64,000 nt of DNA from a virus (taxonomy: Duplodnaviria > Caudoviricetes): the IMG/VR virus record IMGVR_UViG_3300032307_000764, positions 32,001 through 96,000 of that record. One strand, 5' to 3'. Below are positions 1,731 to 17,468 of this stretch, piece by piece. How positions within the stretch are numbered: the first letter of the stretch is position 1; every line of letters begins with the position of its first letter. The notes beneath the pieces are model-generated. The model ran no database searches and was not told the DNA's origin. It saw only the letters and a list, made by a program, of their open reading frames with translations. The position numbers were made by a program, and so were the translations under genes.

Positions 1731-1883
1731 TTTGCGTTTTTATCTCTAATTATATATAGATAAAAGGAAAATTATTCATGATATGAAAAATAATTATAAA
1801 AAAGTGAAACTCTTCTGCAACCAGGGACTACAATTTTTACGAAGTAAATCCCGGGCTATGAATCATATATTATTAGAAGTCCT

Positions 1884-2504
1884 ATGAGCCCCCAATTTTT
1901 AGTTATAGCATATTACACAGAAAACACTTCTTACGAAGCACTCGCTGCAAATCTTAAAAAATCTTTACAGCACTTTGGAATAGCTCATCACATAGAAGGT
2001 ATTAAAGATCTGGGATCATGGGAGAAGAATACACACCACAAAGCATATTTTATTAAGAAGTGTCTAACCGATAGAAACCAAGATCTATTATGTGTAGATG
2101 TTGACGCAGTCTTTAAATCATATCCAGAACTTATTCCAACCCTTGATTGTGACATAGCATACAGGACAGAGAATTTTAGATGGAGAAAGGACGAAGCATT
2201 ATCTGGAACAATATTCCTAAGAAATAATGATAAGGTTAAAAGACTAGTAGACAGATGGATAGAGCTTAATGAATCAACTCCAGCTGAAAGAATGAAACCT
2301 GAAACATGGGAGCAAAAAAATATGCAAAGAGCTCAAAGAGAGTTCAGCGATATTGTATATTACAATCTGCCACCAGAGTACACCTATATCTTCGATCATA
2401 CTAGAACAATGTTTCCTGGTATCCAACCAGTGATAGAGCATTATCAAGAGAGTAGAAATGTACATAGACCTACGAATCAAAATAGGAATTTCAGAGTAAG
2501 ATAA
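1884..2504 (+). CDS. Nucleotide-diphospho-sugar transferase (GT-A fold, GT77/Nucleotid_trans-like)
   Basis: DxD motif in LLCVDVDAVF; LSGTIFL motif; WEQKNMQ and LPPEY segments typical of this group; first gene of the glycan operon. Confidence 0.7.
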   Translation: MSPQFLVIAYYTENTSYEALAANLKKSLQHFGIAHHIEGIKDLGSWEKNTHHKAYFIKKCLTDRNQDLLCVDVDAVFKSYPELIPTLDCDIAYRTENFRWRKDEALSGTIFLRNNDKVKRLVDRWIELNESTPAERMKPETWEQKNMQRAQREFSDIVYYNLPPEYTYIFDHTRTMFPGIQPVIEHYQESRNVHRPTNQNRNFRVR

Positions 2505-2506
2505 TT

Positions 2507-3241
2507 ATGGAATTAAAATATGCAGTAGTTAGCTCTGACTCTAATCCTGAGTATCTAGATTTTTGGCCATACGTAGCAAGAGCTTGGAAAAGGATTGGAA
2601 TAGAACCAGTCCTTCTTTATATAGATAAGGAATCGCCTAATCCTAGCGTGTATGATCACGGAAGGGTTATTTATCTAGAATCTATACCTGAATGGAGTAT
2701 AGCACAACAAGCACAATGTATAAGATTTTGGGCAGCTAAGATATTAGATGCTCCTTTTATAATATCTGATATGGATATGTTACCTATATCTAAGGATTAT
2801 TATAAACGGGGAGTCTCCGAGATTGGTGGTCAGGGTTTGGTTTCTTATAGCTCTGATATTATTAAATATCGATGGTATAGAACTAATCCCCAATATCCTA
2901 TGTGTTATTTAGCAGGTGATCCTTCTAGCTTCATTGGGATCTTAGAGATGAATGAAAGTACACATCAGGAATTTTTACGTAGATTGATAAGAATGAACAT
3001 AAGATCCGGTACAGATCAGAAATTCTTCTATAATCAATCATTAAAAAATCGGCAGTTTAGTATCAAGCATTTAGAGCGTGGATGGATAGAAGAAAAATAT
3101 GCTACATGTAGATTAGATAAGGTTATCTGGCCAAATTCGGGGTATAATGTAGATGAATATATAGACTGTCATTTACCTCGTCCGCTTTCTGCTAATGTTG
3201 GTATATGTAAAGAATTATTCAATAAGCTTAAAATAGATTAA
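2507..3241 (+). CDS. Putative glycosyltransferase-like protein (GT-A)
   Basis: IISDMDMLP DxD motif, YLDFWP N-terminal motif, C-terminal DCHLPRP; located in the glycan operon. Confidence 0.55.
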   Translation: MELKYAVVSSDSNPEYLDFWPYVARAWKRIGIEPVLLYIDKESPNPSVYDHGRVIYLESIPEWSIAQQAQCIRFWAAKILDAPFIISDMDMLPISKDYYKRGVSEIGGQGLVSYSSDIIKYRWYRTNPQYPMCYLAGDPSSFIGILEMNESTHQEFLRRLIRMNIRSGTDQKFFYNQSLKNRQFSIKHLERGWIEEKYATCRLDKVIWPNSGYNVDEYIDCHLPRPLSANVGICKELFNKLKID

Positions 3242-4051
3242 ATGAAGTTATCAATAATACTTCCAACTGGTGGTAACGACCACTTAAGAAATCGTAACTT
3301 TAACGAATGTCTTTTAGCTATAAAGGGACAAAAATTTACTGATTATGAAGTAATAGTCGTTGAGCAATCCTTGGATGGGAATTTTTATAAATCTTCTAAT
3401 CCTACATTAAACTATAAACACATAGGAATCAAGGATCCACAGAATAGAGGATTTAATCTAAGCTGGTGTAGAAATGTAGGAGCAAGAGAAGCTCAAGGAG
3501 AGATAATAGTTCTAATGGATTCCGATTTTGTTTTTGAATCGGATTATTTTACAGTGATAAGTGAATTTAAAGGAGAATTTGCTGCAGGTGCTGAGACGTA
3601 CTATTGGTGTAATACCGAAGAGCCAACGTCAGAATGGCTAAGAACTAAAGACTTTAATTTATTCAGAAGAAGAGGAGCAGGTCCTAGAGATGCTGTTTTT
3701 CAATTTAGATCTATGTCTAGAGGATGTGGATACGGGGCAATACTTGTTTACAATAGAGAGTGGTTTTGGGAATCGATGGGAGGATATAATGAGAACTTCT
3801 TTAGATACGGATGGGAAGATAAAGCAACGACAGAGATGATTAAATCACTTCTAGGTAGAGATGATGAGAGTATGCTTAGAATACCATACGAAGCTGCTCA
3901 TTTAAGTCATATGTCGAAAGACGTAAGAAATCTAAACACCAACGAGGCTCTTTTTTATAAATTTACTAGAATGAATCAGTCGGATCTTTCAAAAATGATA
4001 AAGGAATCATCTGTTGGTAAAAAATCAGCACCTACATTAATTAATATTTGA
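3242..4051 (+). CDS. Glycosyltransferase, GT2 N-terminus with Glyco_transf_7C-like C-terminus
   Basis: LSIILP, EVIVVEQ, RNVGA, MDSD (DxD) and GGYNENFFRYGWED motifs. Confidence 0.85.
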   Translation: MKLSIILPTGGNDHLRNRNFNECLLAIKGQKFTDYEVIVVEQSLDGNFYKSSNPTLNYKHIGIKDPQNRGFNLSWCRNVGAREAQGEIIVLMDSDFVFESDYFTVISEFKGEFAAGAETYYWCNTEEPTSEWLRTKDFNLFRRRGAGPRDAVFQFRSMSRGCGYGAILVYNREWFWESMGGYNENFFRYGWEDKATTEMIKSLLGRDDESMLRIPYEAAHLSHMSKDVRNLNTNEALFYKFTRMNQSDLSKMIKESSVGKKSAPTLINI

Positions 4052-4052
4052 T

Positions 4053-5102
4053 ATGAATAAACCGATAAGAAATATATCAGAAAGTAGGGTAAGAAGAAGA
4101 ATAATTAATAGAGTTGCACCTCCTATAATACAGCAAAATATAACTCCACAGGAGCCAACTAACCCCCAGGAGCCAAAGATTAATAGGGAAATAAAAAATG
4201 AGATAGTTATGATGAATAAGCATCAGATAATAGAAGCATATGAAAGGAATAAGATAGATTATAACGATCTTAAAAATTTCTGCGAATTTAACATGTGCAA
4301 TACCGATGATGTTGACGTTTCTGTTATAATTCCAGTAAAAGGGAGAGAAAATTTTAATAAACCATTAGTAGATCATCTTATATCTGCTATGAATTTTTTC
4401 AAAGATAAAACATATTCCATAACATTCGTAGAGCATAGTGAAACTCCCATTCATAAGGAATTATGTAATGGTGTTTCTAATCATATATGGATTAAGAAGA
4501 TTGATAGAGGATTATTTAATAAATGTCTATCTATGAACGTTGGTGCTTTATTTTCTAATAAGGCAAAATATTATCTCTTCCATGATATAGATCTTTTGGT
4601 TGATCGACAATTCTTTTATAACATTTTTCAAAACATATCTAGAATACCTATCGGCTCTGCTTTACAATCTTTTGGAGGAAGAAGAGTTGTTGTAATGAAT
4701 AACGAACTAACTGATAGAATATTGAGAAACAGGACTAGAATTGAAGAGGTAATTCCAGGAAGCTATGAATCTCCTCACTGTACACCGGGAGCTCCAGGAG
4801 GATCGATATTTATTAGTTCGGATAGCTTTTATAGAGTAGGCGGATTTGATGCTGAATTTTTTCACAGCTATTCATGCGAGGATGCCTTCTTTTATCATAA
4901 ACTCGAGATGACAGTTGGTATACAAGGATCTGATAGTCCATTAATTGATGTCTTCCATATGGATCATCCAAGAACTAACGGAGCAGATAATCCTGATCGA
5001 CATATGCAAAATCTAATATATGCAGGATTTTTAAGTATGTCTCCTGAGGATAAAACTAATTTTATAACCCACATTTCAAATAATATAAATAGCCTAAAAT
5101 GA
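4053..5102 (+). CDS. Glycosyltransferase (GT2/GT7C-like) with a low-complexity N-terminal extension
   Basis: VSVIIPVKGR, FNKCLSMNVG, FHDIDL (DxD) and GGFDAEFFHSYSCED motifs; about 85-aa Arg/Pro/Gln-rich N-terminus. Confidence 0.85.
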   Translation: MNKPIRNISESRVRRRIINRVAPPIIQQNITPQEPTNPQEPKINREIKNEIVMMNKHQIIEAYERNKIDYNDLKNFCEFNMCNTDDVDVSVIIPVKGRENFNKPLVDHLISAMNFFKDKTYSITFVEHSETPIHKELCNGVSNHIWIKKIDRGLFNKCLSMNVGALFSNKAKYYLFHDIDLLVDRQFFYNIFQNISRIPIGSALQSFGGRRVVVMNNELTDRILRNRTRIEEVIPGSYESPHCTPGAPGGSIFISSDSFYRVGGFDAEFFHSYSCEDAFFYHKLEMTVGIQGSDSPLIDVFHMDHPRTNGADNPDRHMQNLIYAGFLSMSPEDKTNFITHISNNINSLK

Positions 5103-5767
5103 GAAAAGCATTTGAATATTTTGACAAGGTTTTTTTAATAAATCTTGATAAGAGAAAGGATAGATTGGACAGATGTAATGACATCTTTGAAAAAAACAAC
5201 GTTAAAGATCTCGTAGAAAGATTTCCAGGTATAGTCCCAGATCCTTCTGATGATATACCATATACTAAGGATACTGAAAAAATAAAAGTTCCTTTGTACG
5301 GATGTTTATTATCCCACGTAAATATTATAAAAAAAGCAAAGGCCGAAGGGTTAAAATCAATACTTGTATTTGAAGATGATGTTGATTTTATCAATATTGA
5401 TTCAATAGAAAAATCAGTAGATCAGTTAAAAAATAGAGATTGGAGTCTTTTTTATCTAGGAGCTAATACGCACGTTCCGATCGAAAAAGTAGACGAAAAC
5501 CTTTTAATATTAAAGAAAGGATATGCAACACATGCTGTAGCATACCACGAGAGCTTCTATGATTATTTTATAGATAGTTTTGAGCAGAAAAAAATACACA
5601 TTATAGATGTATGGCTTTCTGATTTCGGACAGGAAAATTTTAAAAGCTATTGTACTTTCCCTATAACTGCAGTTCAAGTTAGCAACCACAGCGATATACA
5701 TGACGCATTTGCTGATTATAGTTGGATGGAGGGTAAATTTAAAGAAAACACTAAACACCTGGGATAA
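5099..5767 (+). CDS. Glycosyltransferase family 25
   Basis: FLINLDKRKDRL, GCLLSH, VFEDDV and THAVAY motifs characteristic of GT25. Confidence 0.85.
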   Translation: MRKAFEYFDKVFLINLDKRKDRLDRCNDIFEKNNVKDLVERFPGIVPDPSDDIPYTKDTEKIKVPLYGCLLSHVNIIKKAKAEGLKSILVFEDDVDFINIDSIEKSVDQLKNRDWSLFYLGANTHVPIEKVDENLLILKKGYATHAVAYHESFYDYFIDSFEQKKIHIIDVWLSDFGQENFKSYCTFPITAVQVSNHSDIHDAFADYSWMEGKFKENTKHLG

Positions 5768-6480
5768 TGGAACTGAAAAGAATATTAATAACTGGAGCTA
5801 CAAGCGGGATAGGAGAAGCTACATTTAAACATGCAGTAAGAAACGGTCACACTGTTTTTATTACAGGTAGAAATGAAGAAATTCTAAAAAAACTAGCAGA
5901 AGAAAATCCGGGAACGTTTTATTTAAAAACTGATGTGACAAATGTAGATGACGTTCAAAAATTATCTATTGAAGTCACAGACAAAATGGGTGGTATAGAC
6001 GTTTTGTTAAATAATGCAGGAATAGGTATATTCGATAAATTAATTGATTCGGATTTAAGTGACTGGCATAAAATGGTAGATGTAAATATCAAAGGAGTAT
6101 TAAACATGCTTCATTATTTTTTACCTATGCTAATAAAATCAAACGGACAGGTAATAAATTTGGGCTCCGTAGCTTCACATCATGTTTTTCCTGAATCTGG
6201 TGTATATTGCGCTACTAAACACGCATTGCTTGCAATTAGCGAAAGCTTAAGAGCTGAGCTTTCCAAAAAAATAAGGATTACCACTATTAGTCCTGGATCA
6301 GTCAATACACCTTTTATAGACCAAACAAAAAATCCAGAGCTTCTTTCTAAATTTAAACCCTCATTTGAGAGCGGTATGTCAGTAGAATGGGTTGCATCTC
6401 AGATAATGAGCACTATAGAGGTTGAGGACGGAATGAACATAAGTGAAATAATTATTAGGCCTTTTCAAATTAAGAATTAA
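5767..6480 (+). CDS. Classical short-chain dehydrogenase/reductase (YdfG-like)
   Basis: TGATSGIG Rossmann motif, NNAG, and YCATK catalytic YxxxK. Confidence 0.9.
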   Translation: MELKRILITGATSGIGEATFKHAVRNGHTVFITGRNEEILKKLAEENPGTFYLKTDVTNVDDVQKLSIEVTDKMGGIDVLLNNAGIGIFDKLIDSDLSDWHKMVDVNIKGVLNMLHYFLPMLIKSNGQVINLGSVASHHVFPESGVYCATKHALLAISESLRAELSKKIRITTISPGSVNTPFIDQTKNPELLSKFKPSFESGMSVEWVASQIMSTIEVEDGMNISEIIIRPFQIKN

Positions 6481-6482
6481 AA

Positions 6483-6893
6483 ATGGAGAGAATATATTCA
6501 AAAGTAGAAGAAGGAAAGCTATTGCATATAATTAATAGGCTATCTGAAATAGAAAAAAGAACAGAGGTTGTTCCTGAGGATAATTTTATACAATGTGCTA
6601 CTTTAAAAATGGAGAACGGTAAGACATTTCCTCCACATAAACATATTACCAAGGAAAGATCGTATAAGGCTCAAATTGCTCAGGAATCATGGGTGGTAAT
6701 AAAAGGAAGTGTTAAATGTAAGTTCTATGATATAGATGATACATTAATTGCAGAACCTATTTTATACCCAGGAGATGCTAGTTTTACACTTTACGGGGGT
6801 CATACCTATGAAATTTTAGAGGATGACACTATAGTTTATGAATATAAAACGGGTCCTTATGAGGGACAAAAATTAGATAAAGTATTTTTATAA
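6483..6893 (+). CDS. Cupin-fold protein (WbuC-like)
   Basis: PPHKH...QE metal motif and GGHTYEI second cupin motif; such cupins occur in polysaccharide clusters. Confidence 0.7.
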   Translation: MERIYSKVEEGKLLHIINRLSEIEKRTEVVPEDNFIQCATLKMENGKTFPPHKHITKERSYKAQIAQESWVVIKGSVKCKFYDIDDTLIAEPILYPGDASFTLYGGHTYEILEDDTIVYEYKTGPYEGQKLDKVFL

Positions 6894-7687
6894 TGATAGG
6901 AGGAAACATACTTGGTGGACTTGGCAATATGATGTTTGTTATTGCTGCTGTAGAAAATTTGGCAAAAGCTAATAATAATATTGCTTACTTTCCTAATGTT
7001 AAATCACATTTAGCTAAGGTTCAGGATGATAGAACAAGAGTTTATCCTAATTCTGATGTATCTACGCAGGACTATTTAAAGATCTTCAGAAATTTTAAAT
7101 GGAACGACGTAGGTAATGCAACTGGAAAAATATTATGTACATTTAATTATAATCCTATTCCTTATAGAGATGGTGTGGTTTATCATGGATATTTTCAGAC
7201 TGAAAAATATTTTACAAATAGAGATCATATTTTAAATCTATTTGAACCATCTGATTTTGTATTACAGCAGATAGAAAAGTATAGGGATATATTAAATGGA
7301 AATACATGTGCTATACATGTTAGAAGGGGAGATTATTCTTTAGATCAAGAAAGCAAACATCACACTAAAAATATGGAATGGTATAATTCTGCTATGAACA
7401 TTGTTGATGCAGAAAAATACATAGTATTTAGTGATGATATCGAATATGCTAGACAGAATTTCTTAGGAGATAAATTCATTTTCGTCGAGGATAAGGATTA
7501 TATAGAGCTTTTTTTGATGTCTATGTGTAATCATAATATCATATCTAGTTCTAGTTTTTCTTGGTGGGGAGCTTGGCTAAATAAAAACGTAAACAAGAAA
7601 GTTATTGCACCTATGAGGTGGTTTGGAAAAATAGATCCTGGGTATCCAGATCGAGATATAGTTCCCGATAGCTGGATAAAATTATAA
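6893..7687 (+). CDS. Alpha-1,2-fucosyltransferase family GT11
   Basis: GGLGNMMF, GYFQTEKYF, IHVRRGDY, FSDD and SSFSWWGAWL motifs. Confidence 0.92.
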   Translation: MIGGNILGGLGNMMFVIAAVENLAKANNNIAYFPNVKSHLAKVQDDRTRVYPNSDVSTQDYLKIFRNFKWNDVGNATGKILCTFNYNPIPYRDGVVYHGYFQTEKYFTNRDHILNLFEPSDFVLQQIEKYRDILNGNTCAIHVRRGDYSLDQESKHHTKNMEWYNSAMNIVDAEKYIVFSDDIEYARQNFLGDKFIFVEDKDYIELFLMSMCNHNIISSSSFSWWGAWLNKNVNKKVIAPMRWFGKIDPGYPDRDIVPDSWIKL

Positions 7688-7690
7688 GGA

Positions 7691-8635
7691 ATGAGATATA
7701 ACAACGTAACAATAAAAGGAACCTCATCATATCTACCAAGTAGAGTATTAACAAATGCTGAGATATCAAGTAAGGTTGATACTACTGATGAATGGATATT
7801 TAATAAGCTAGGTATAAAGGAGAGAAGAATATCTAACGATGATGAAACGGTATCTGAGATGGGATATCAAGCTGCATTATCAGTATTAGAAAAAACTGGT
7901 ATGGACAAAGAGGATCTTGATATGATAATTGTTGCTACGTCTAGTCCTGAAAAAATTTCACCCTCTACTGCATGTACAATTCATTATAAATTAGGTATAA
8001 AGAGAAATATACCAGCATTTGATATAAACGCAGTATGTTCTGGTTTTGTGTATGGAATAACCTTAGGAAGTTCTCTTATTAGTAGCAAAGCTTTTAAAAA
8101 TATACTAGTAATTGCTACTGAATCTTATTCTACACACACTGACTTTGAAGCTCAGCATAGTGTATTCTTTGGAGACGGGGCCGGTGCAGTTATTATAAGT
8201 GAATCCGAAGAGGGATGGATTTACAGCGAGATAAAATCTAATGGATCTGGAACTGGTATGACTGGATTTGTTATGCCATTAGATAAGCCTTTCATAATGA
8301 GGGGTAAAGAGGTTTGGGATCAAGCAATATCGGTATTACCAGATTCTATAAACGATGTTCTTAAAGGAACTAATCTAACCATAGAAGATATAAAAATGGT
8401 AGTTCCTCATCAGCCGAGTATTAATATACTTAAGATAATTGCAGAGAAAAACAATATACCTTTTAACAAGGTTAAAACTGTAATGGATAAGTATGCAAAT
8501 ATTGCTGGATCTTCAATACCTATTGCTCTAGACGAGGCAATAAATAACGGAGAGATTGAAAAGGGTGATAAGATACTATTAACTGCTATAGGATCTGGAT
8601 GGACTTGGGGATCTTTAATTGTAAATTATAAATGA
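7691..8635 (+). CDS. fabH: 3-oxoacyl-ACP synthase III (FabH/KAS III family)
   Basis: Cys in NAVCSGF, His in HQPS, Asn in YANIAGSSIP; FGDGAGAV and GSGWTWG motifs. Confidence 0.9.
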   Translation: MRYNNVTIKGTSSYLPSRVLTNAEISSKVDTTDEWIFNKLGIKERRISNDDETVSEMGYQAALSVLEKTGMDKEDLDMIIVATSSPEKISPSTACTIHYKLGIKRNIPAFDINAVCSGFVYGITLGSSLISSKAFKNILVIATESYSTHTDFEAQHSVFFGDGAGAVIISESEEGWIYSEIKSNGSGTGMTGFVMPLDKPFIMRGKEVWDQAISVLPDSINDVLKGTNLTIEDIKMVVPHQPSINILKIIAEKNNIPFNKVKTVMDKYANIAGSSIPIALDEAINNGEIEKGDKILLTAIGSGWTWGSLIVNYK

Positions 8636-8636
8636 T

Positions 8637-9149
8637 ATGAAAAAAGGAGAAGACGTAAGAATAAGTGAATTAGCTGTTTTATCTAGACCTGAATTGATAG
8701 AAATGGGAGATCATATAGCTATTGATCAATGGACTTATATTTCTACTCAACTTAAAATGGGAAGCTATATCCATATAGCTCCAAGTGTTTCTATTATAGG
8801 CGGAGCTCCTGCTCTTTTAATTATGGGCGATTTTACGAATATAGGATCAGGTAGTAGAATAGTTTGTGCGACCGATGATTTTACACAGGGACTGATATCC
8901 CCTGTAGTTCCTATTGAACACCGAACTGTTATTAATAAGCCTGTGATTTTTGAAAAATATGCTACACTTGGAGTTAACTGTACAGTTTTACCCGGAGTTA
9001 CTTTAGGAGAGGGATGTATAGTAGGTGCTAACTCGTTAGTAACTAAAGACACTGAGCCTTGGACAATATACGCTGGAAGTCCTGCTCGTCCTATCAAGAA
9101 AAGAGAGAAAGAAAGAATAATAGAAAGCGCAAAAAAACTAGGATACTAA
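8637..9149 (+). CDS. Hexapeptide-repeat O/N-acyltransferase (left-handed beta-helix)
   Basis: LGVNCTVLPGVTLGEGCIVGANSLVTKD and YAGSPARPIKKR motifs. Confidence 0.9.
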   Translation: MKKGEDVRISELAVLSRPELIEMGDHIAIDQWTYISTQLKMGSYIHIAPSVSIIGGAPALLIMGDFTNIGSGSRIVCATDDFTQGLISPVVPIEHRTVINKPVIFEKYATLGVNCTVLPGVTLGEGCIVGANSLVTKDTEPWTIYAGSPARPIKKREKERIIESAKKLGY

Positions 9150-9153
9150 AATT

Positions 9154-10637: not shown

Positions 10638-10652
10638 TAAATAAAAATAAAA

Positions 10653-11561
10653 ATGGAAAAAATAAATTATTTCAAAAATAAGGAGGCTTTAGATATTCCT
10701 TGGATAGAATCTCCATTTTTCTATGAATTATTAAAAAATGATACAACTCTAACTGACGAACAGAAAGAAATGTGCATTCAGTATCACGAGAAGGGATATT
10801 TAATAATTGACTTAGAATTACAGGATGATGAAATAAATTCAATTGTTTCTGATATGTACGAAGCGATAAATGACGAAAATACTAAATATCACGCAGATCA
10901 TTTTACTTATACAGAGAGCAAAAGGATATTTGAACATTGGAGAAAAAGTAAACCTATAGCTAATCTTACCATGAATAAGAAAGTAATGGATACTCTAGCT
11001 TTTTTATATGCAAAGGAGCCTTTTCCTTTTTCAACTATCAATTTTATAAAAGGAAGTAATCAGCCTTTACATAGTGATATCATACATTTCCACACAGTAC
11101 CTGCTTTATGGATGGTTGGTGTTTGGGTAGCATTTGAAGATGTTGACGAGACTAACGGATCATTAAAAATTGTTCCTGGAAGCCACAGATGGGATTTATA
11201 TGAGTATCATAATTTAAAATTACCACATCCTGATGATATCGAAAACGGAGAAGCAGTTAATTACGAAAAATACGAGAACTTCTTAATAGATCTTATCGAA
11301 GCTAAAAAAGCTGAACCAATGATAGTTAAGCTTAAAAAAGGACAGGCTCTTATATGGGCAGCTAATATGCTTCATGGCGGGTGCAATGTAGAAGGTGTAA
11401 CCGATTTCAATAAAACAAGATTAACCCAGGCAAATCATTATTTTTTTAAGGGATGTGATAAACATTATCATCCTATGTTTTCTAGACCTTTAGAAGGAAA
11501 ATATGCTAACAAATGGTGTAACGATGAAAACAACATAAAGACTTATTTAGATAATGAGTGA
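10653..11561 (+). CDS. 2-oxoglutarate/Fe(II) dioxygenase (PhyH family)
   Basis: LHSD (HxD), VWVAFEDVDETNGSL..VPGSH and LHGG distal His. Confidence 0.85.
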   Translation: MEKINYFKNKEALDIPWIESPFFYELLKNDTTLTDEQKEMCIQYHEKGYLIIDLELQDDEINSIVSDMYEAINDENTKYHADHFTYTESKRIFEHWRKSKPIANLTMNKKVMDTLAFLYAKEPFPFSTINFIKGSNQPLHSDIIHFHTVPALWMVGVWVAFEDVDETNGSLKIVPGSHRWDLYEYHNLKLPHPDDIENGEAVNYEKYENFLIDLIEAKKAEPMIVKLKKGQALIWAANMLHGGCNVEGVTDFNKTRLTQANHYFFKGCDKHYHPMFSRPLEGKYANKWCNDENNIKTYLDNE

Positions 11562-12402
11562 TATACTTTTATATCTACCACCTGGATGGGTAAGGGGGGA
11601 TTTTGTGAATCTAGGAAAAATAGAATACGAGAAGGAAGTACAAATATACGTAGATCAAATGCCAATTGACCCTGTTGGACCGGGTATTTTTAGATTTGTT
11701 GCTATATTAGAGCCATTCGATTCACTAAAAAATAGTATGATTAATTATTTTAATAATCATAAGGATTGTTATAATTATATACTTACCTATCATCATGATA
11801 TATTGGATACGTTTCCAAATTCCTTTATTTCAGTAACGCCTGATTTATGGGTGAATGATTATATCGAAAAAGATAAAGAATTTAGTGTGTCCTCAGTTTT
11901 TGGTAATAAACATTTGTCTGAATATTTAGCGGGATTGGAAGGATATAATGTAAGATGGGAATTATTTACCAGAAGTGATGAGATAAAGATGGATAAGAGG
12001 TTTTATCTAAGTGGAAGTTCTCCTATTCCTGGTATTAATTACGAAGATCATTTAGTTCTTAGGGATCTTAAAACACCTATGTTTGATAGCCAGTTTCATA
12101 TTGCCATAGAAAACACCAATAGGATAAAGAATGCTTTTTCTGAGAAATTAATAGATTGTTTTTATACCAGGACTATACCAATATATTACGGACCTTCTAA
12201 CATTGGAGATTTTTTTAATATAGAGGGAATATTCATAGTTAATAGTGTCGATGATATTATTGATGTTTGTAATAGAATAAATGAAAATACATATGATTCA
12301 TTAGAATCTGTTATAGAAGAGAATTATAATAGATCTTTAAACTATAAGAATATGGAGGAGACAATGGTTATAAATGTTAAAAAAGTACTTGGAATAAAAT
12401 AA
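11554..12402 (+). CDS. GT10-like (alpha-1,3-fucosyltransferase-like) protein
   Basis: FHIAIEN...FSEKLIDCF...TIPIYYG matches the GT10 C-terminal motif. Confidence 0.75.
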   Translation: MSDILLYLPPGWVRGDFVNLGKIEYEKEVQIYVDQMPIDPVGPGIFRFVAILEPFDSLKNSMINYFNNHKDCYNYILTYHHDILDTFPNSFISVTPDLWVNDYIEKDKEFSVSSVFGNKHLSEYLAGLEGYNVRWELFTRSDEIKMDKRFYLSGSSPIPGINYEDHLVLRDLKTPMFDSQFHIAIENTNRIKNAFSEKLIDCFYTRTIPIYYGPSNIGDFFNIEGIFIVNSVDDIIDVCNRINENTYDSLESVIEENYNRSLNYKNMEETMVINVKKVLGIK

Positions 12403-12407
12403 AAAAT

Positions 12408-13109
12408 ATGAAATTTAAAACCATACATAGTTTAGGTAGTAGATGTCAGAATTCTGATGTTTTAAAGTATTATAATTATAGGGAATTCTCTGGATTTTTT
12501 GATTTTATGAACACCCTGAAGGTAAGTAATCTTATTCATATACTAAATGATGATTTTTGTGAAATTCTAAAACCCGAAAATAATATTAGCATTTGTTGTG
12601 AACAGATGACTACTGACCCAGAGACTGGAGAAAAATTAGAAACTTCAATTAGAACCACTAATAAATTTTATGACCCAGATATTGAGGATGTCCATGGAGC
12701 TATATTTCCACACCACGACCTAAATAATAAGAAGGATTATAATCATTTTTTAAAGTGTAAGAAGAGATTTAAAAAACTAAGTAAATATCCTACACTTTTT
12801 AATTACACTTTTAATAAATGGGAAAATTACATAACTATAGATGACTGCGAAGAGATAGTTAGATCCTTAAAAGAAGTCCACGGAATGAAAAAATTCAGGA
12901 TTTGCTTTATAGGAATCAATTACGGTGAAAGATTCTATAAAAAAAATGTATCGGGAGAATACTATGATATATGGTCTTTAAATATAGATCCAGAGAGCTT
13001 TACTGGGGGTTTATTTATTGATGATATAGATAATGAAAATTATATAAGTATCATCAAAAGCTATGACATAGATGAGAATAGGGTATCTTTAAAACAAATT
13101 GACAAATAA
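12408..13109 (+). CDS. Putative papain-like cysteine peptidase (DUF1796-like)
   Basis: SLGSRCQ putative catalytic Cys, GFFDF and FPHH motifs. Confidence 0.55.
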   Translation: MKFKTIHSLGSRCQNSDVLKYYNYREFSGFFDFMNTLKVSNLIHILNDDFCEILKPENNISICCEQMTTDPETGEKLETSIRTTNKFYDPDIEDVHGAIFPHHDLNNKKDYNHFLKCKKRFKKLSKYPTLFNYTFNKWENYITIDDCEEIVRSLKEVHGMKKFRICFIGINYGERFYKKNVSGEYYDIWSLNIDPESFTGGLFIDDIDNENYISIIKSYDIDENRVSLKQIDK

Positions 13110-13118
13110 AGAATAATT

Positions 13119-13727
13119 ATGAGCTTTGAAATAGTTGATAAATTCGAAAAAGAGGTAGCCAAATTTTTTGGAGCGCCTTATAGTGTTGCAGTAGACAGCT
13201 GTACACATGGTATAGAACTATGCCTAAGATATACAGGAGAGAAAAAAATAAACGTACCAAACCGAACATATCTGTCCGTTCCGTTTTTAGCAGAAAAAAT
13301 GGGACTTGAAAGGGAATGGAGAGATGAAGAATGGGAAGATTATTATACTTTAAATTATGGTGATAAAAGAATAATAGACGCTGCTGTTTTATGGAGAAGA
13401 GATTCTTATATTCCTAATACATTTATGTGTTTAAGCTTCCAATACCAGAAACATTTAAGTATCGGAAGGGGTGGAATGATCCTATGTGATAACAAGGAAG
13501 ATTACGAAACTCTTAAAAAAATGAGCTATGATGGTAGGATTCCTAATATACCTTGGAGAGATCAGGATATTGATACGATAGGTTACCACTATTATATGAC
13601 TCCAGAGTCGGCTGAAATTGGCCTATCTAAATTACAAAAAGCAATAGAAACGGAGCCAAGAAAATGGATCTATACAGATTGGCCGGATTTGACTGAAATG
13701 AAATTTTTCAAAAAATCCAAGATATAA
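13119..13727 (+). CDS. Compact DegT/DnrJ/EryC1/StrS PLP-dependent aminotransferase
   Basis: FEKEVAKFFGAPYSVAVDSCTHGI, IDAA, SFQYQK (PLP lysine), GRGGMI and GYHYYM motifs; only 202 aa. Confidence 0.8.
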   Translation: MSFEIVDKFEKEVAKFFGAPYSVAVDSCTHGIELCLRYTGEKKINVPNRTYLSVPFLAEKMGLEREWRDEEWEDYYTLNYGDKRIIDAAVLWRRDSYIPNTFMCLSFQYQKHLSIGRGGMILCDNKEDYETLKKMSYDGRIPNIPWRDQDIDTIGYHYYMTPESAEIGLSKLQKAIETEPRKWIYTDWPDLTEMKFFKKSKI

Positions 13728-13730
13728 AAT

Positions 13731-13758
13731 AAAAATAGTGCTGTATAGCGATATTTTT
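13731..13758 (+). terminator. Possible weak hairpin or terminator between degT and gmd
   Basis: aaaaata-gtgct-gtat-agcga-tattttt forms an imperfect stem with a T-run; mostly A/T pairs. Confidence 0.2.
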
Positions 13759-13773
13759 TAAATAAGAAAATTA

Positions 13774-14769
13774 ATGAGAAAAAAAGCTTTTATTACTGGT
13801 ATTAACGGACAGGATGGTAGTTATTTGTCCGAATATCTTTTATCGTTAGACTATGAAGTACATGGAATGATTAGAAGAAATTCTACCTCTGAAAACCAAT
13901 CTGCTAGATTAGATTCAGTTTTAGAAGATCCTAATCTTTTTACGCATTACGGGGATCTTACAGATCAAACTTCTATAGAAAAGCTTTTAACTCAGATCAA
14001 ACCTGACGAAATCTATAACATAGGAGCTCAAAGCCATGTCAGAATTAGCTTCGATATACCTCAATATACTGTACAAACAAACTCTATAGGAGTTATTAAT
14101 ATGTTGGAAGCATATAAAAGAATAGTCCCTGATGCTAAATTTTACCAAGCTAGTTCATCTGAAATGTTTGGTTTATCTGTTGATGAGGATCATTTCCAGA
14201 GAGAATCAACCCCTATGAATCCGGTTTCACCTTATGGATGTAGTAAGGTGTTCGGCTACAATATAGTTAGGCACTATAGAAGAGCATACGGATTACACGC
14301 ATGTAACGGTATTCTTTTCAACCACGAATCTCCTAGAAGAGGATCTAACTTCGTAACCAATAAAGTCGTAAAAGGCGCTTGTGAAATTAAATTAGGATTA
14401 TCCAATAAGTTGGAAATGGGTAACATGGATTCTTATAGAGACTGGGGTCATTCTAAAGATTATGTAAAGGCTATGCACCAGATAATCAATCACACAGTTG
14501 CTGACGATTTTGTTGTATCTACAATGGAAACCCATAGTGTTAGAGATATGTGTGATGTGGTATTTACTTATCTAGGATTGGATTACAAAGATTATATTGT
14601 ACAGAATCCTAAATTCTTAAGACCTGAAGAACTTCCTTATTTAAAGGGTGACTCTACTAAAATTCGTAAAGAATTAGGATGGGAACCGACTTATAATTTT
14701 ACTGAGATGCTTCATGAAATGTGTGATCATTGGATGGACGTTTTACAAGGGAAAAAATCAAATCGTTAA
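13774..14769 (+). CDS. gmd: GDP-mannose 4,6-dehydratase
   Basis: ITGINGQDGSYL, AQSHVRISF, YQASSSEMFG, PVSPYGCSK, NHESPRRG and RDWGH motifs. Confidence 0.97.
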   Translation: MRKKAFITGINGQDGSYLSEYLLSLDYEVHGMIRRNSTSENQSARLDSVLEDPNLFTHYGDLTDQTSIEKLLTQIKPDEIYNIGAQSHVRISFDIPQYTVQTNSIGVINMLEAYKRIVPDAKFYQASSSEMFGLSVDEDHFQRESTPMNPVSPYGCSKVFGYNIVRHYRRAYGLHACNGILFNHESPRRGSNFVTNKVVKGACEIKLGLSNKLEMGNMDSYRDWGHSKDYVKAMHQIINHTVADDFVVSTMETHSVRDMCDVVFTYLGLDYKDYIVQNPKFLRPEELPYLKGDSTKIRKELGWEPTYNFTEMLHEMCDHWMDVLQGKKSNR

Positions 14770-14788
14770 ACCTTTTAAAAAAGTATGA

Positions 14789-15370
14789 ATGGATTATAAA
14801 TCGCTCATCGAAAAAGAGATAGAATATTTAAGAAAAATCCCTACAGAAAGAATATCTGATATCGTTACTCAGATAGATTATTATTTAAAACCAGGATGTA
14901 GAATAATAACATCAGGGATGGGAAAAGCAGGACAGATTGCCCACACTTTTTCTACTACTCTATCATCTACAGGAACTCCCTCTTTTTTTCTTCATCCAGC
15001 CGAAGCACAACACGGAGATCTTGGTATAGTAATGCCTGGTGATATTATAGTGGTTTTTAGTAATTCTGGAAAGACTAAAGAGGTAATGGAGCTGATTGAT
15101 CTGGTTCATAATTTAGGCTATGATAACTTAATAATGGGTATATTTGGACAATCTAATAACTATGTCAATTTAAAATGTTCAGACTATATAGAATTTGGTA
15201 AGGTGGAAGAAATATGTCCAATGGGATTAACACCAACAACGTCAACAACATGTATGTCGGTTATATCCGATTTATTAGTTGTAGGCCTAATGGAAAAAAG
15301 GGGTTATAACAAGAAAAAATATTCAAAAGTTCATCATGGAGGATATCTCGGAGAAGAATCTAAGAAATAA
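14789..15370 (+). CDS. kdsD: Arabinose-5-phosphate isomerase, SIS domain only (no CBS pair)
   Basis: SGMGKAG, GTPSFFLHPAEAQHGDLG, SNSGKT, PTTSTT and HHGGYLG motifs; the protein ends right after the SIS domain. Confidence 0.9.
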   Translation: MDYKSLIEKEIEYLRKIPTERISDIVTQIDYYLKPGCRIITSGMGKAGQIAHTFSTTLSSTGTPSFFLHPAEAQHGDLGIVMPGDIIVVFSNSGKTKEVMELIDLVHNLGYDNLIMGIFGQSNNYVNLKCSDYIEFGKVEEICPMGLTPTTSTTCMSVISDLLVVGLMEKRGYNKKKYSKVHHGGYLGEESKK

Positions 15371-16139
15371 AATATTAATAGCTGGACCCTGTGTCATACA
15401 ATCTTGGGATACGTGCTATGAAATTGCTATAGAAGTTAAGAGATGTGCAGATCTTTATGATTTCTATCCGGTATTTAAAGCTAGTTTCGATAAGGCAAAT
15501 AGAACGTCGTATGACGGCTTTAGAGGTATAGGTATAGATAAAGGATTAGAAATACTTAAAAATGTAAAAGAAAGGCTTCAAATCGATATAATTACTGATG
15601 TACATGACGTTTCGCAAGTTGAGAAAGTAGCTTCAGTAGTCGATATTTTACAGGTACCAGCTTTTCTTTGTAGACAAACTGATCTTATAGAAGCTTGTGC
15701 TAGAACAGGAAACCCCACTTTGGTTAAGAAGGGACAATTTCTTTCACCAGAAGCATGTAAATTCATAGAGCATAAATTCTACAAAGCTGGAGGATCTAAT
15801 TTAATGATAGGAGAAAGGGGAAATAGCTTCGGATATAATGATCTAATAGTTGATGTAACTTCAATAAGTAGACTAAAAAAATCGTGTGTAGAATCTAAAA
15901 TAATAATGGATTGCACTCATAGTTTACAAAGGCCCAACGGATCAAGCGGTAAGACTGAAGGAAGGGGAGATATGGTAGAGGATATGGTTAAATTCGCTGC
16001 AGCTATGGGAGCGGATGGATTATTTATTGAAACCCATCCTTATCCTGAATTATCACCATCAGATTCGGAGAATATGTTACAATTAGGATTATTTGAGGGA
16101 GTAATAAGAAAAGCAAGAAAAATATATGATACAGAATAA
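15336..16139 (+). CDS. kdsA: KDO-8-phosphate synthase (metal-dependent type)
   Basis: IAGPCVI, KASFDKANRTS, PAFLCRQTDL, KKGQFLSP, ERGNSFGYNDL, DCTHSLQ and FIETHP...SD motifs. Confidence 0.95.
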   Translation: MEDISEKNLRNKILIAGPCVIQSWDTCYEIAIEVKRCADLYDFYPVFKASFDKANRTSYDGFRGIGIDKGLEILKNVKERLQIDIITDVHDVSQVEKVASVVDILQVPAFLCRQTDLIEACARTGNPTLVKKGQFLSPEACKFIEHKFYKAGGSNLMIGERGNSFGYNDLIVDVTSISRLKKSCVESKIIMDCTHSLQRPNGSSGKTEGRGDMVEDMVKFAAAMGADGLFIETHPYPELSPSDSENMLQLGLFEGVIRKARKIYDTE

Positions 16140-16845
16140 ATTACTTGATATTGTAATAATAAGTTATGCTAAGGATGACTATTGTAGATCCCTTACTAAA
16201 AATTGTATATTCTCTATATTACTATCTGAAGAAAATGCAGTTGATAATTTCAATATTATAGTAGTTGAATCTGAGCCAGGAGTTAAATGGGAATACATTG
16301 CTGAAAATGTAAAAACATACGAAGCTCCGCTACCTTATGGATATCACAAATTTTTAAATTTCGGAAGAAAAAAAGGAGATTCACCATGGGTTGCTCTATG
16401 TAACAATGACCTAGAATTCACCAATGGGTGGTTTAGTTCTATGCTTAAAGCTTCATCTGAAAATCCAGATACCTTATCATTTTCTCCAATATGTCCTAGG
16501 ACACAGACAATGTATGGGATATACGAGAACAGTGGGTACCACAAGGGATACAATATAAGAAAGGAAATTTCTGGATGGTGTATAGTCCAGAAGAGAGAGA
16601 TTTATAAAAAAATAGGAGATCTTGATGAAAGATTCCATCATTGGTTTTGTGATAATGATTATGCTATGGAACTTCAGTATCATGGACTTTCACATATACT
16701 TGTAACAGATTCTGTTGTTATACACCACGATAAAAACATAGGGAAAACAACTGAAAGAGTAGTTACTGATCCTAATCAAATGCACGAGATGACTATGGGA
16801 TCACAGCCAATATTTATTGAAAAATGGAAAAATAGAATAAGATGA
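16126..16845 (+). CDS. Glycosyltransferase family 2
   Basis: LDIVIISY, NIIVVES, CNNDL, SGWC and DERFHHWFCDNDY motifs. Confidence 0.85.
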   Translation: MIQNKLLDIVIISYAKDDYCRSLTKNCIFSILLSEENAVDNFNIIVVESEPGVKWEYIAENVKTYEAPLPYGYHKFLNFGRKKGDSPWVALCNNDLEFTNGWFSSMLKASSENPDTLSFSPICPRTQTMYGIYENSGYHKGYNIRKEISGWCIVQKREIYKKIGDLDERFHHWFCDNDYAMELQYHGLSHILVTDSVVIHHDKNIGKTTERVVTDPNQMHEMTMGSQPIFIEKWKNRIR

Positions 16846-17468
16846 GAAGATACGAAATAATTAACAGAGTAATAGAGTCTAAAGGATACAGTGATTATCT
16901 TGAAATAGGAGTAAGAGATGGCGAATGCTTTAAACAGATATGTTGCAAAAATAAAACGGGAGTAGATCCTAATCCAGTTAGTTCTGATACTACTCACGTA
17001 ATGACATCTGATGATTTCTTTAACTCTATTAGCGAGGATGTTAAATTCGATATAATTTTTATTGACGGATTACATTTGGATTTTCAAGTTGATGCTGATA
17101 TAGAGAATTCTTTAAAACATCTTAAAGAGGGTGGAACTATACTTCTTCACGACTGTAATCCCCCTACACCTTTTCATGCTGATACTAAGCCTAATTTTGG
17201 TCCTCCGGCCAACGGAGAATGGAATGGAACCGTTTATCTTTCGTTGATTAAGCTAAGACTTTACAATAATAATGTTAAACTAAGGACTGTCAATAGCGAC
17301 TGGGGTGTTGGTATATTAACCAAAGAGCTTAGTGAAAGTATAAACGTTTTTCCAAACGATGCAATTAGCTGGGATTTCTTTGATTCGAATAGGAATGAGG
17401 TACTTGATTTAATTACCCCTGAAGATTTCTTAGAATTATACCCGGTGGAAGTTTTAAATGCTAATTGA
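16842..17468 (+). CDS. Class I SAM-dependent methyltransferase (Methyltransf_24-like)
   Basis: YLEIGVRDG, FDIIFIDGLH and GGTILLHDCNP motifs; last gene of the glycan operon. Confidence 0.85.
   Translation: MRRYEIINRVIESKGYSDYLEIGVRDGECFKQICCKNKTGVDPNPVSSDTTHVMTSDDFFNSISEDVKFDIIFIDGLHLDFQVDADIENSLKHLKEGGTILLHDCNPPTPFHADTKPNFGPPANGEWNGTVYLSLIKLRLYNNNVKLRTVNSDWGVGILTKELSESINVFPNDAISWDFFDSNRNEVLDLITPEDFLELYPVEVLNAN

Follow-up and report, generated by a model that had tools for sequence, protein, structure and literature searches.

A glycan locus with conserved ends and a swappable middle lies beside the baseplate genes of an uncultured T4-type jumbo phage

In a large, uncultured T4-type jumbo phage from freshwater, a glycan locus built like a bacterial serotype locus occupies a fixed position immediately ahead of the baseplate genes. 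Its ends are conserved (w1884 and w2507 on the 5′ side; a gmd-family gene, a SIS-only kdsD, kdsA, the glycosyltransferase gene w16126 and a methyltransferase gene on the 3′ side), and they enclose a swappable middle of 10-20 kb that holds glycosyltransferases, sugar-nucleotide enzymes and tailoring enzymes. We favour, with a probability of about 0.45, the reading that the phage glycosylates its own virion proteins over the reading that it remodels the LPS core of its host. The acceptor is one that we infer: the clues are indirect, and they only lean towards virion proteins.

The window, a stretch of 64,000 nucleotides, comes from a linear contig of 248 kb with an estimated completeness of 85%. 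Between positions 1884 and 17468 all 21 co-directional plus-strand open reading frames listed by a sequence-only reading were confirmed, and its description of them as tightly coupled holds, with neighbours overlapping by 1-35 nt or separated by 0-46 nt. Its count of about nine glycosyltransferase-like proteins is correct, though five of these assignments draw on weak or indirect evidence. The cluster also lies beside virion genes as described, being embedded in a tail/baseplate block of the same orientation whose baseplate genes start downstream at 21224. That the locus is a chimera of assembly, or was recently inserted from a bacterium and plays no part in the phage, might be suspected from the bacterial-type families to which many of the genes belong and from the linear, incomplete contig. 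However, both junctions, together with both conserved ends, are common to at least 18 independent IMG/VR viral contigs from different samples, every locus gene with an orthologue is under purifying selection within the phage lineage (dN/dS = 0.02-0.24), homologues of the locus genes are found mainly in viral clusters, and GC content is uniform across the window (0.28-0.35), without the compositional break proposed as a sign of a bacterial insert. This explanation is effectively refuted; the 21 genes are real and well conserved, and the earlier view of an operon that resides in the phage and serves to assemble and tailor a glycan in the cytoplasm is supported.

The conserved 5′ end begins with w1884 (1884..2504; plus strand, like all locus genes below), a nucleotide-diphospho-sugar transferase-like GT-A protein (PF03407/GT34-like; Pfam E 0.0014, below the cut-off; Atlas 0.99) that is present in all relatives and has paralogues in some. 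The second gene, w2507 (2507..3241), has no Pfam match; its structural model (pLDDT 93.4) points to a GT-A fold glycosyltransferase of GT8/GT6/UGGT-like type, with Foldseek matches to LARGE1, UGGT and ABO transferases (TM 0.5-0.56). It carries an invariant SDMD motif, and its homologues number 153 metagenome proteins and are 69-82% identical in 21 contigs. At the 3′ end stands a divergent allele of the GDP-mannose 4,6-dehydratase (gmd) family (13774..14769; PF16363 E 8e-115; TIGR01472 383 bits against a cut-off of 415), which shares 44% identity with the gmd found in most relatives. It is followed by the core arabinose-5-phosphate isomerase of KdsD/KpsF type (14789..15370; TIGR00393 E 2e-40, SIS part only), which is without CBS domains and 70-75% identical in 18 contigs, and by the core Kdo-8-phosphate synthase KdsA (15336..16139; NF003543 316 bits, above cut-off), 67-91% identical in 18 contigs. 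The core then ends in the GT2-like GT-A glycosyltransferase w16126 (16126..16845; model pLDDT 92; 282 metagenome homologues) and the SAM methyltransferase paired with it (16842..17468; Methyltransf_24, PF13578 E 1e-9), also conserved in 18 contigs. Beyond it the conserved block continues (17502..18871) with two proteins of 86 and 212 aa, neither with an assigned function, and a NUDIX hydrolase whose gene has its own late-type motif at 18295.

The variable middle opens with a GT2 glycosyltransferase (3242..4051; PF00535 34 bits, PF10111 34 bits), a GT2/GT7-like GT-A protein (4053..5102; weak PF13733; Atlas 0.98 to viral GT2/GT7C clusters) and a LOS-type GT25 glycosyltransferase (5099..5767; PF01755 E 1e-9). 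These are succeeded by a classical SDR of FabG/3-hydroxyacid dehydrogenase-like type (5767..6480; PF00106 E 2e-47), a WbuC-like cupin (6483..6893; TIGR04366 34.5 bits, below the cut-off of 42), a GT11 protein of the alpha-1,2-fucosyltransferase family (6893..7687; PF01531 E 6e-22), a FabH-type beta-ketoacyl synthase III (7691..8635; TIGR00747 304 bits, above cut-off) and a left-handed beta-helix (LbH) sugar N/O-acyltransferase (8637..9149; Hexapep; WbbJ/NeuD/VioB-type E 4e-17). The next gene, w9154 (9154..9801), had been called SGNH; the N-terminal GDSH motif is there, and makes an SGNH-type esterase or acyltransferase possible, but neither Pfam nor PDB yields a match. Similarly, w9801 (9801..10637), described as NodZ/GT23-like, does match PF19745 and is possibly a GT23 (FUT8/NodZ)-like transferase, but the match is weak (E 0.004) and there is no PDB sequence match. 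Among type-A islands both genes occur in this genome only, w9154 being absent from the relatives c3453 and c8484. A PhyH-family Fe/2OG dioxygenase (10653..11561; PF05721 E 6e-20) and a GT10-like protein of the alpha-1,3-fucosyltransferase family (11554..12402) follow, the latter assigned through viral Atlas clusters (0.98) in which PF00852 is found in 44-67% of members, and having homologues in most islands. Downstream lie a DUF1796 protein (12408..13109; PF08795 E 2e-10), which the earlier reading did not mention, and the gene it named DegT (13119..13727). The product of this gene retains the SF..K Schiff-base motif but is a truncated DegT-like protein of 202 aa, which lacks the entire C-terminal domain and some 45 residues of the large one; its dN/dS of 0.12 indicates that the truncated gene is maintained.

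Among relatives the span from w2507 to kdsA measures 9.7-20.3 kb and comes in six or more gene mosaics. Their variable genes include those for FkbM methyltransferases, Fcl, GT10, GT11, GT6 and GT29-like proteins, full-length DegT and PseF-like cytidylyltransferases, and a more distant relative has the SIS gene and the glycosyltransferase gene but no kdsA. One island has moved between diverged backbones: island genes of c8484 differ from those of the window by dN 0.03-0.19 (86-95% identity), and the backbone genes flanking them by dN 0.20-0.32 (64-72% identity). The locus had been put forward as a candidate new system, which is overstated because T4-like cyanophages have similar clusters: those of P-SSM2, with 24 'LPS' genes (PMC1079782), and of S-SCSM2R, with 13 glycosyltransferases and KdsA/KdsB (PMC12801897), are of the same kind, and the GT11 (30-42% identical) and gmd of this locus have cyanophage homologues. 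What is new here is the fixed site, the conserved ends, the mosaic middle and one mobile island.

Export, polymerase and initiating polyprenyl-phosphate genes, reported absent by the sequence-only reading, are likewise absent from the full contig: by a crude hydropathy predictor, and at 85% completeness, none of the proteins in the 248 kb is a multi-pass membrane protein, the maximum of four hydrophobic segments being reached only by proteins of 116-134 aa, and no Bac_transf match for a polyprenyl-phosphate transferase was found. The contig also holds no KdsB, KdsC, ACP or recognisable Kdo transferase. Fcl is missing from this genome, though present in most relatives, and the 'fucose' glycan proposed earlier is thus overstated.

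For virion-protein glycosylation we propose that, late in infection, soluble enzymes would convert GDP-mannose and ribulose-5-phosphate of the host into GDP-4-keto-6-deoxymannose derivatives and Kdo-8-phosphate, with KdsC, KdsB and any Fcl activity supplied by the host. The conserved glycosyltransferases would begin the glycan, w16126 being the candidate initiating (protein O-) glycosyltransferase, and the variable GT11, GT10, GT25 and GT2 enzymes would lengthen it, while FabH, the SDR and the LbH acyltransferase could add a short acyl decoration. Assembly would take place in the cytoplasm, directly on Ser/Thr of phage tail or fibre proteins, so that no lipid carrier or exporter would be needed, and cassette swapping would give related phages different glycan 'serotypes'.

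Several observations lean towards a virion target. The sole promoter-like signal at the locus head is a late-type motif, ATATATAG (1752..1759, plus strand), kept at this site in most relatives; it is palindromic with a minus-strand copy at 1757 that faces w1014, and the plus-strand motif may be a by-product, as the mirror image of the w1014 motif. Across the genome 48 of 317 genes have ATATATA[AG] 8-45 nt upstream; among them are 10 of the 13 capsid-tag-like genes (Fisher p 5e-7), tail-fibre genes and also some non-structural genes. The presence of this motif together with the absence of the early-cassette motif from the locus leans to a virion target, as does the position inside the co-oriented tail/baseplate block. 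The only cultured-phage homologues of w16126 are actinophage glycosyltransferases; it aligns at 33% identity (E 1e-29) with the C-terminal half of gp16 from Mycobacterium phage Omega, whose gene directly follows that of the major head protein and precedes a methyltransferase gene, and this homology leans the same way. According to a passage in PMC11600133 that cites Freeman 2023, cassettes of a glycosyltransferase and an O-methyltransferase glycosylate the capsids and tail tubes of mycobacteriophages. A more distant homologue adjoins a T4 gp15-like tail gene, with other glycosyltransferases and a sulfotransferase, whereas in Gordonia phage Ziko the homologous gene does not lie in a structural module. 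The w16126 model, with polypeptide GalNAc-transferases as its best matches (ppGalNAc-T2/PGANT9, TM 0.65-0.72), also leans to a virion target, but the GT-A fold ranking is weakly discriminating because the wall-teichoic-acid glycosyltransferase RmlT scores in the same range as protein glycosyltransferases (TM 0.67-0.70). A second module in the same genome, parts of which recur in relatives, leans likewise: after a collagen-repeat protein come an oxygenase of prolyl-hydroxylase type with a fused GT2, a further GT2 and a fusion of GT4, GT9 and a methyltransferase. Finally, several fibre-like proteins contain 20-29% Ser+Thr, one with a mucin-like T/G/S stretch, although tail fibres are Ser/Thr-rich generally.

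Remodelling of the host surface is a possible, if doubtful, alternative. Soluble glycosyltransferases would extend the lipid A-Kdo core on the cytoplasmic side of the host's inner membrane, KdsD and KdsA would raise the supply of Kdo, and host MsbA/Lpt would export the altered LOS; the altered surface would block superinfection or prevent new virions from adhering to debris, as has been suggested for the 'LPS genes' that T4-like cyanophages carry, and the variable middle would follow differences in LPS core chemistry among host strains. The absence of Wzx, Wzy and ABC genes, though it holds contig-wide, does not exclude such a role, since LOS core extension on lipid A-Kdo by soluble GT25, GT11 and GT10 enzymes uses host MsbA/Lpt, and export-gene absence even fits it: extension of the LOS type does without Wzx, Wzy, Wzz, an ABC transporter and a polyprenyl-phosphate transferase. 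GT25, GT11 and GT10 belong to the classic families of the LOS/LPS outer core, where they likewise lack membrane anchors, and GT2, gmd, fcl and kdsA join them among the families of LOS/O-antigen loci and cyanophage clusters (PMC1079782; PMC12801897). The conserved core encodes only the first two Kdo steps, leaving KdsB, KdsC and Fcl to the host, which fits the feeding of host LPS at least as well as the making of a protein glycan. We know of no Kdo-containing protein O-glycan. The nearest genome match of the FabH is Psychroflexus (44%), and the host is probably a Gram-negative member of the Bacteroidota. On the other hand, the late-type motif and the virion-block position may place expression at a stage when little LPS would still be turned over, the cultured phages with a w16126 homologue infect Actinobacteria, which have no LPS, the locus is without a Kdo transferase, heptosyltransferase or lipid A gene, and the role proposed for the cyanophage clusters is itself only putative.

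We consider it highly improbable that the glycosyltransferases put sugars, possibly Kdo, on hydroxymethylated bases of phage DNA as a defence against restriction, in the manner of the phage gene clusters that Pyle et al. describe. T4-type phages do glucosylate DNA, and an extra GT2 lies among nucleotide-metabolism genes (genome 119025-120254). Phage glycosyltransferases can also attach Kdo, heptose and mono- to trisaccharides to 5hmC (bioRxiv 10.1101/2023.12.21.572611). Against this, no 5hmC/5hmU machinery was found in the 248-kb contig (no thymidylate-synthase-family hydroxymethylase, C5 cytosine methyltransferase or TET/JBP dioxygenase), nine glycosyltransferases with acylation and methylation enzymes go far beyond known DNA glycans, and the locus sits in the virion block, away from replication genes. 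Another cytoplasmic acceptor is unlikely, be it a small molecule, a protein of the host, or a precursor, secreted or meant for the host capsule, that the host exports. Genes for FabH, SDR, PhyH and methyltransferases are also known from pathways that make natural-product glycosides, and w9154, w12408 and w17722 are among the genes with no assigned function, but there are no PKS, NRPS or terpene scaffold genes, the serotype-like variation, like the fucosyltransferase families, suggests that the glycan is exposed at a surface, and the locus is conserved beside baseplate genes.

Upstream of the first gene lies a non-coding leader, TGAAACT...GGGACTAAAATTTTTAC...GTAAATCCCGGGCTATGAAT (1805..1865, plus strand). 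It has no Rfam match and no consensus fold; it is unique in the genome and is conserved in at least 14 relatives, although the flanking genes have dS > 1.

Window positions 1884-17468 are filled by 21 plus-strand ORFs, with neighbours overlapping by 1-35 nt or spaced by 0-46 nt. The locus is embedded in a tail/baseplate block of the same orientation, and baseplate hub, wedge and adaptor genes together with several very large fibre-like proteins are encoded downstream of it on the linear IMG/VR viral contig (248,191 bp, 34% GC; CheckV completeness estimate 85%), of which the window takes up bases 32001-96000. Gene families were assigned with Pfam, NCBIfam, Atlas and two structure models, and the inventory of the sequence-only reading, which had described a 15.6-kb phage glycan operon here, proved essentially right. 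Firmly assigned are GT2 (w3242; ORFs are named by their start in the window), GT25 (w5099) and GT11 (w6893) glycosyltransferases, PhyH, DUF1796 and Methyltransf_24 proteins, a classical SDR, FabH (above the NCBIfam cut-off), an LbH sugar acyltransferase, a gmd-family enzyme (w13774), a SIS-only KdsD (w14789) and KdsA (w15336). Four proteins are GT-like on a weaker basis, namely w1884 (PF03407/GT34-like), w4053 (GT2/GT7-like), w9801 (FUT8-like, E 0.004) and w11554 (GT10-like by Atlas features). The model of w2507 (pLDDT 93) adopts a GT-A fold nearest to GT8/GT6/UGGT, with an invariant SDMD motif, while a cupin is WbuC-like below the cut-off and the putative 'SGNH' protein w9154 was so named solely for its GDSH motif. 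KdsB was rejected as an identity for w2507 and for the GT w16126, being just one among many GT-A fold matches, and neither protein matched PF02348. PDB sequence and profile searches gave no usable match for w16126, w9801, w9154 or the right-flank gene w17722.

A full DegT/DnrJ/EryC1 sugar aminotransferase is a two-domain PLP fold of about 360-390 aa; the DegT-like protein of the window (w13119) is a 202-aa remnant under purifying selection that retains the SFQYQK Schiff-base lysine motif but lacks about 45 large-domain residues and the entire C-terminal domain.

Had the locus been a bacterial insert or an assembly chimera, as the sequence-only reading allowed, its composition should break at the borders. 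GC is flat over both of them. Loci were recovered from independent metagenomes (19 with KdsA as query, 21 with w2507), and after overlapping loci had been merged, 18 related contigs showed the same flanking genes around a glycan locus: w54, w464 and w1014 (minus strand) on the left, and w17502, w17722, a NUDIX gene and baseplate genes on the right. As a query for related loci, w464 returned one locus only. For every gene with an orthologue in the two closest relatives, the truncated DegT-like gene included, dN/dS was 0.02-0.24, a rough estimate since dS was often saturated. The flat GC, the same junctions in 18 contigs and the purifying selection thus exclude a chimera and show that the locus is the phage's own. 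Megablast of the whole cluster against GenBank phages gave no match.

All relatives open the locus with w1884 and w2507 and close it with the gmd-family gene, kdsD, kdsA, the GT w16126 and the methyltransferase w16842. Between these conserved ends, as in O-antigen and capsule loci, lies a variable centre of GT and sugar genes: the interval from w2507 to kdsA measures 9.7-20.3 kb and takes the form of at least six gene mosaics among the relatives. The middle found in the window recurs in two contigs only (c3453 and c8484), both of which are without w9154 and w9801. Variable middles of other types again consist of glycan genes, including FkbM methyltransferases (10 of the 67 proteins scanned), an Fcl-like GDP-fucose synthase adjoining a canonical gmd, GT10, GT11, GT6, a GT4-like protein, GT29/CST-I-like proteins, DUF5672, full-length DegT, a class III aminotransferase, a PseF-like cytidylyltransferase-cupin fusion, an RfaE-II-like nucleotidyltransferase, WbqC and a pyruvyl transferase. 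When c8484 was compared with the window, the island genes w5099-w13774 were 86-95% identical (dN 0.03-0.19), whereas the flanking kdsA, GT and baseplate genes were merely 64-72% identical (dN 0.20-0.32). Because the island is closer than its flanks, it must have moved between diverged backbones, which is how O-antigen and capsule loci evolve.

Two smaller events were seen in the same comparison. The GDSH-motif gene w9154 and the FUT8-like gene w9801 (window 9154-10637) occur, among the three islands of this type, only in the present genome, which points to a recent two-gene insertion. In two relatives (L041, about 8860-9400, and L029, upstream of w2507), an ORF whose C-terminus resembles HNH endonucleases has been inserted into w1884 about 35 codons from its start, which suggests a mobile element or intron.

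The Kdo entry steps are present, with KdsD recognised by TIGR00393 (E 2e-40, SIS part only) and KdsA by NF003543 (316 bits, above cut-off). KdsC (TIGR01670) and KdsB (PF02348) found no match in the whole contig, estimated to be 85% complete, nor was any GT30/GT99-type Kdo transferase recognised there; some relatives carry PseF/KdsB-like and RfaE-II-like nucleotidyltransferases. The fucose-type glycan proposed earlier keeps its gmd-family gene, but the GDP-L-fucose pathway is incomplete: no Fcl was found in the contig, where the PF01370 matches are gmd and the classical SDR only. The gmd of the window scores 383 bits, below the cut-off of 415, and in most relatives a canonical gmd (495 bits) is joined by a gene for an Fcl-like protein, which NF047922 scores at 433 bits against a strict cut-off of 500. 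By gene content, the lineage of the window has swapped fcl and the canonical gmd for a divergent gmd and the DegT remnant. The predicted products that the phage can make are GDP-4-keto-6-deoxymannose (Gmd) and Kdo-8-phosphate (KdsD, KdsA); CMP-Kdo and any fucose synthesis would be left to the host. FabH, the FabG-like SDR and the LbH acyltransferase may furnish a short (hydroxy)acyl group for an amino or hydroxyl sugar; a whole-contig search found no ACP. In a more distant relative (L047:9424-10708, a 183-kb contig with a GT 56% identical), the order gmd-like, SIS, GT is kept and kdsA is missing between SIS and GT, so that the SIS isomerase is not strictly tied to a phage KdsA.

Glycosylation of virion proteins is the reading that we favour, at a probability of about 0.45. 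Clues to place and timing are the position of the locus within the co-oriented tail/baseplate block, the late-type motif at 1752 and the lack of a capsid tag on all 21 enzymes; a further clue to the acceptor is the collagen/hydroxylase/GT module at the left end of the genome. In 50,697 phage records, homologues of w16126 were found only as GTs of Gordonia and Mycobacterium phages, and the GT domain of Omega gp16 shares 33% identity with the protein (E 1e-29). Omega gp16 is encoded between the major head protein gene and the methyltransferase gene gp17. This order mirrors that of w16126 and w16842, a GT and methyltransferase pair with a 4-nt overlap that is conserved in 18 contigs; the two methyltransferases have only the SAM-binding motif in common (E 0.01), and Omega itself is not known to be glycosylated. 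The w16126 model (pLDDT 92) best matches polypeptide GalNAc-transferases (TM 0.65-0.72), a fold match that is only a lead because RmlT, a teichoic-acid GT, scores about the same. Several of the fibre-like proteins contain 20-29% Ser+Thr against a genome mean of 12%, weak evidence for a virion target since fibres are generally Ser/Thr-rich. A 782-aa fibre-like protein, w61314 (window 61314-63662), contains TAGT/SGT repeats within a mucin-like T/G/S stretch (residues ~588-627, 62% Ser/Thr), and its gene is preceded at 11 nt by a late-type motif; it is a candidate O-glycosylation substrate. Elsewhere, a 60-kb contig (L048:1758-14710) carries a w16126 homologue (45%) with three GT2 genes, a GT4-like gene, an amidase and a sulfotransferase, adjoining a T4 gp15-like tail gene.

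The acceptor might instead lie on the host surface, with the locus remodelling the LPS/LOS core, a strong rival reading that we hold somewhat less probable. GT25, GT11 and GT10 are LOS-type families, and the conserved Kdo entry steps, present here without KdsB or a Kdo transferase, resemble a boost to the host pathway. The absence of export genes bears on the same question. A search of the whole contig (estimated 85% complete) upheld that absence: there was no large polytopic membrane protein and no flippase with polymerase and chain-length regulator or ABC exporter, the maximum being four hydrophobic segments per protein, reached in proteins of 116-134 aa. Nor did the contig hold an initiating polyprenyl-phosphate sugar transferase of the WecA/MraY or WbaP/PglC type, with no PF02397 (Bac_transf) match and no multi-pass membrane protein. 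The argument that the sequence-only reading built on this absence is weaker than stated, because LOS can be extended without dedicated exporter genes, and its interpretation overall is only partly supported. The closest known clusters, those of cyanophages P-SSM2 and S-SCSM2R, have likewise been interpreted as acting on the host surface, although for cyanophage 'LPS' clusters this is a hypothesis only (PMC1079782).

Hypermodification of DNA with glycans by the GTs of the locus is largely rejected. Such modification of phage DNA is known, including Kdo on 5hmC (bioRxiv 10.1101/2023.12.21.572611), and the clusters of Pyle et al. resemble the present one in having phage GT-A and GT-B enzymes related to LPS GTs, with Kdo among the transferred sugars. 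What defines those clusters, however, is a neighbouring C5-methyltransferase with a 5-methylpyrimidine dioxygenase, or else a hydroxymethylase, and the contig has none of them. Searches for C5-MT (PF00145), TET/JBP (PF12851) and thymidylate-synthase-family hydroxymethylase (PF00303) found no match in it, with controls positive where expected, leaving the contig without any known route to 5hmC or 5hmU.

Signals around the locus were compared with those of the rest of the genome. An ATATATA[AG] motif lies 8-45 nt upstream of 48 of the 317 genes, fibre genes among them, and precedes 10 of the 13 genes whose products begin with a T4-like capsid-targeting tag (Fisher p 5e-7). One copy of this late-type motif, at 1752, is kept in most relatives; it forms a palindrome with the promoter of w1014, a divergent gene, and is for that reason only a moderate clue to timing. 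Early cassettes are marked by another motif, AATCATTT at about -60, which is not present in the glycan locus. A sigma-70 promoter scan returned fewer matches than in shuffled sequence, and terminator-like matches were weak. Upstream of w1884, a non-coding element of about 60 nt (window 1805-1865) is conserved in at least 14 relatives and unique in the genome, and may serve this operon specifically, as a regulatory or antitermination site. A riboswitch or structured RNA in this leader was discounted, there being no Rfam match and no consensus structure from RNAalifold, as was a 34-aa ORF at 1784-1887, which is not conserved in relatives. The capsid tag, an N-terminus of the M(K/R)HIKLFE type, is found in 0 of the 21 glycan-locus proteins, on which ground the idea that they are packaged into the head was rejected. 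The two genes directly left of the locus (window 54-1024) encode capsid-tag-like N-termini, MKRILKIDNF and MRRIYTFNEFDINE, unlike all 21 glycan genes.

The locus belongs with known phage glycan clusters. P-SSM2 carries 24 genes for 'LPS / cell-wall synthesis and modification' in two clusters (PMC1079782), and S-SCSM2R carries 13 GTs with epimerases, KdsA and KdsB (PMC12801897), S-SCSM1 having the same kind of cluster. As in these large aquatic T4-type myoviruses, many soluble GTs (GT2/10/11/25) are grouped with gmd, epimerases and kdsA and without export genes, as found with Pfam, Atlas and PHROG and by comparing content with Table 1 of PMC12801897; the cyanophage homologues are 30-42% identical for GT11 and about 45% for gmd. 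Unlike the cyanophage clusters, the present locus occupies one fixed site in the tail/baseplate block, where at least 18 relatives keep its ends and vary its middle like a cassette, and has a core of SIS-only KdsD and KdsA without KdsB as well as a FabH/SDR/LbH acyl module. The host is probably a member of the Bacteroidota rather than a cyanobacterium; the nearest genomic FabH, from Psychroflexus (44% identity), is a hint in this direction. The locus is distinguished by this fixed virion-block site, by a conserved core of candidate initiating and Kdo genes, and by an exchange of cassettes that recalls serotype loci.

Bacterial O-antigen, capsule and LOS loci share with it the conserved flanks, a variable centre of GT, sugar-nucleotide and tailoring genes, horizontal island exchange and the same enzyme families, but the present locus has no initiating polyprenyl-phosphate transferase, Wzx, Wzy, Wzz, ABC transporter or ligase and sits in a lytic-type phage genome. 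In mycobacteriophages, Freeman et al. reportedly found in 2023 that the subunits of capsid and tail tube bear O-glycans at their C-termini and that these depend on GTs. GT/O-methyltransferase cassettes glycosylate mycobacteriophage capsids and tail tubes, Che8 and Corndog being the examples (PMC11600133, PMC11256854). With these the locus has in common a GT beside a methyltransferase (w16126-w16842), soluble phage GTs and cytoplasmic assembly with no lipid carrier, predicted here from the genes; the mycobacteriophage cassettes differ in comprising 2-4 genes with no sugar-nucleotide synthesis and in having Actinobacteria as hosts. Megavirinae have clade-specific fibril glycosylation clusters of 6-33 genes (PMC10117803), and the likeness extends to clustered virus-encoded sugar-nucleotide pathways and soluble GTs, lineage-specific content and bacterial-type rare sugars. 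They are eukaryotic viruses whose virion glycans have been chemically determined, whereas the phage locus is known from its genes, and the homology shown is that of shared families only.

Drawing on virion glycosylation as the favoured reading, we tentatively picture a clade of freshwater T4-type jumbo phages with Gram-negative, probably Bacteroidota hosts that would coat their own tail, fibre or collagen-like proteins with complex, acylated 6-deoxyhexose/Kdo-type O-glycans, made entirely in the cytoplasm and diversified by cassette swaps at a fixed locus into 'phage serotypes'. Phage glycan clusters have been known in cyanophages since 2005, and the demonstrated cases of virion glycosylation are confined to a few actinobacteriophages and to giant viruses. 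A virion coat here would be the first outside Actinobacteria phages, and no other has been shown to evolve in the manner of an O-antigen locus; Gram-negative phages with variable glycan coats would be affected in adsorption, aggregation, grazing, immune recognition and phage typing. Should LPS prove to be the target, lytic jumbo phages would provide the first clear example of a host-surface-modifying module that diversifies in the manner of serotypes. On either reading, soluble fucosyl- and other glycosyltransferases that need no carrier can be drawn from the locus, and it makes a tractable comparative system, with its fixed site, three conserved GTs that are candidates for 'initiating' enzymes, and numerous natural variants of the cassette among abundant freshwater phages.

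A second glycosylation module lies at the left end of the genome (L055:1-10746, genome 1-10746), about 21-32 kb before the window. It encodes a collagen triple-helix repeat protein cut by the contig end, DUF7936 and DUF6445 proteins, a 415-aa GT2, a 615-aa fusion of a 2OG-Fe(II) (P4H-type) oxygenase with GT2, a GLF-like flavoprotein and a 1302-aa GT4+GT9+Methyltransf_24 fusion. The order of these genes would suit hydroxylation and glycosylation of a collagen-like fibre, and parts of the collagen/hydroxylase/GT module recur after collagen repeats in other contigs. The collagen-like protein and hydroxylase-GT fusion recall L230, the collagen hydroxylase/glycosyltransferase of Mimivirus. A further GT2-domain protein of 409 aa (L051:1450-2676, genome 119025-120254) is encoded among ribonucleotide reductase and adenylate-kinase-like genes and could be a DNA- or nucleotide-linked GT.
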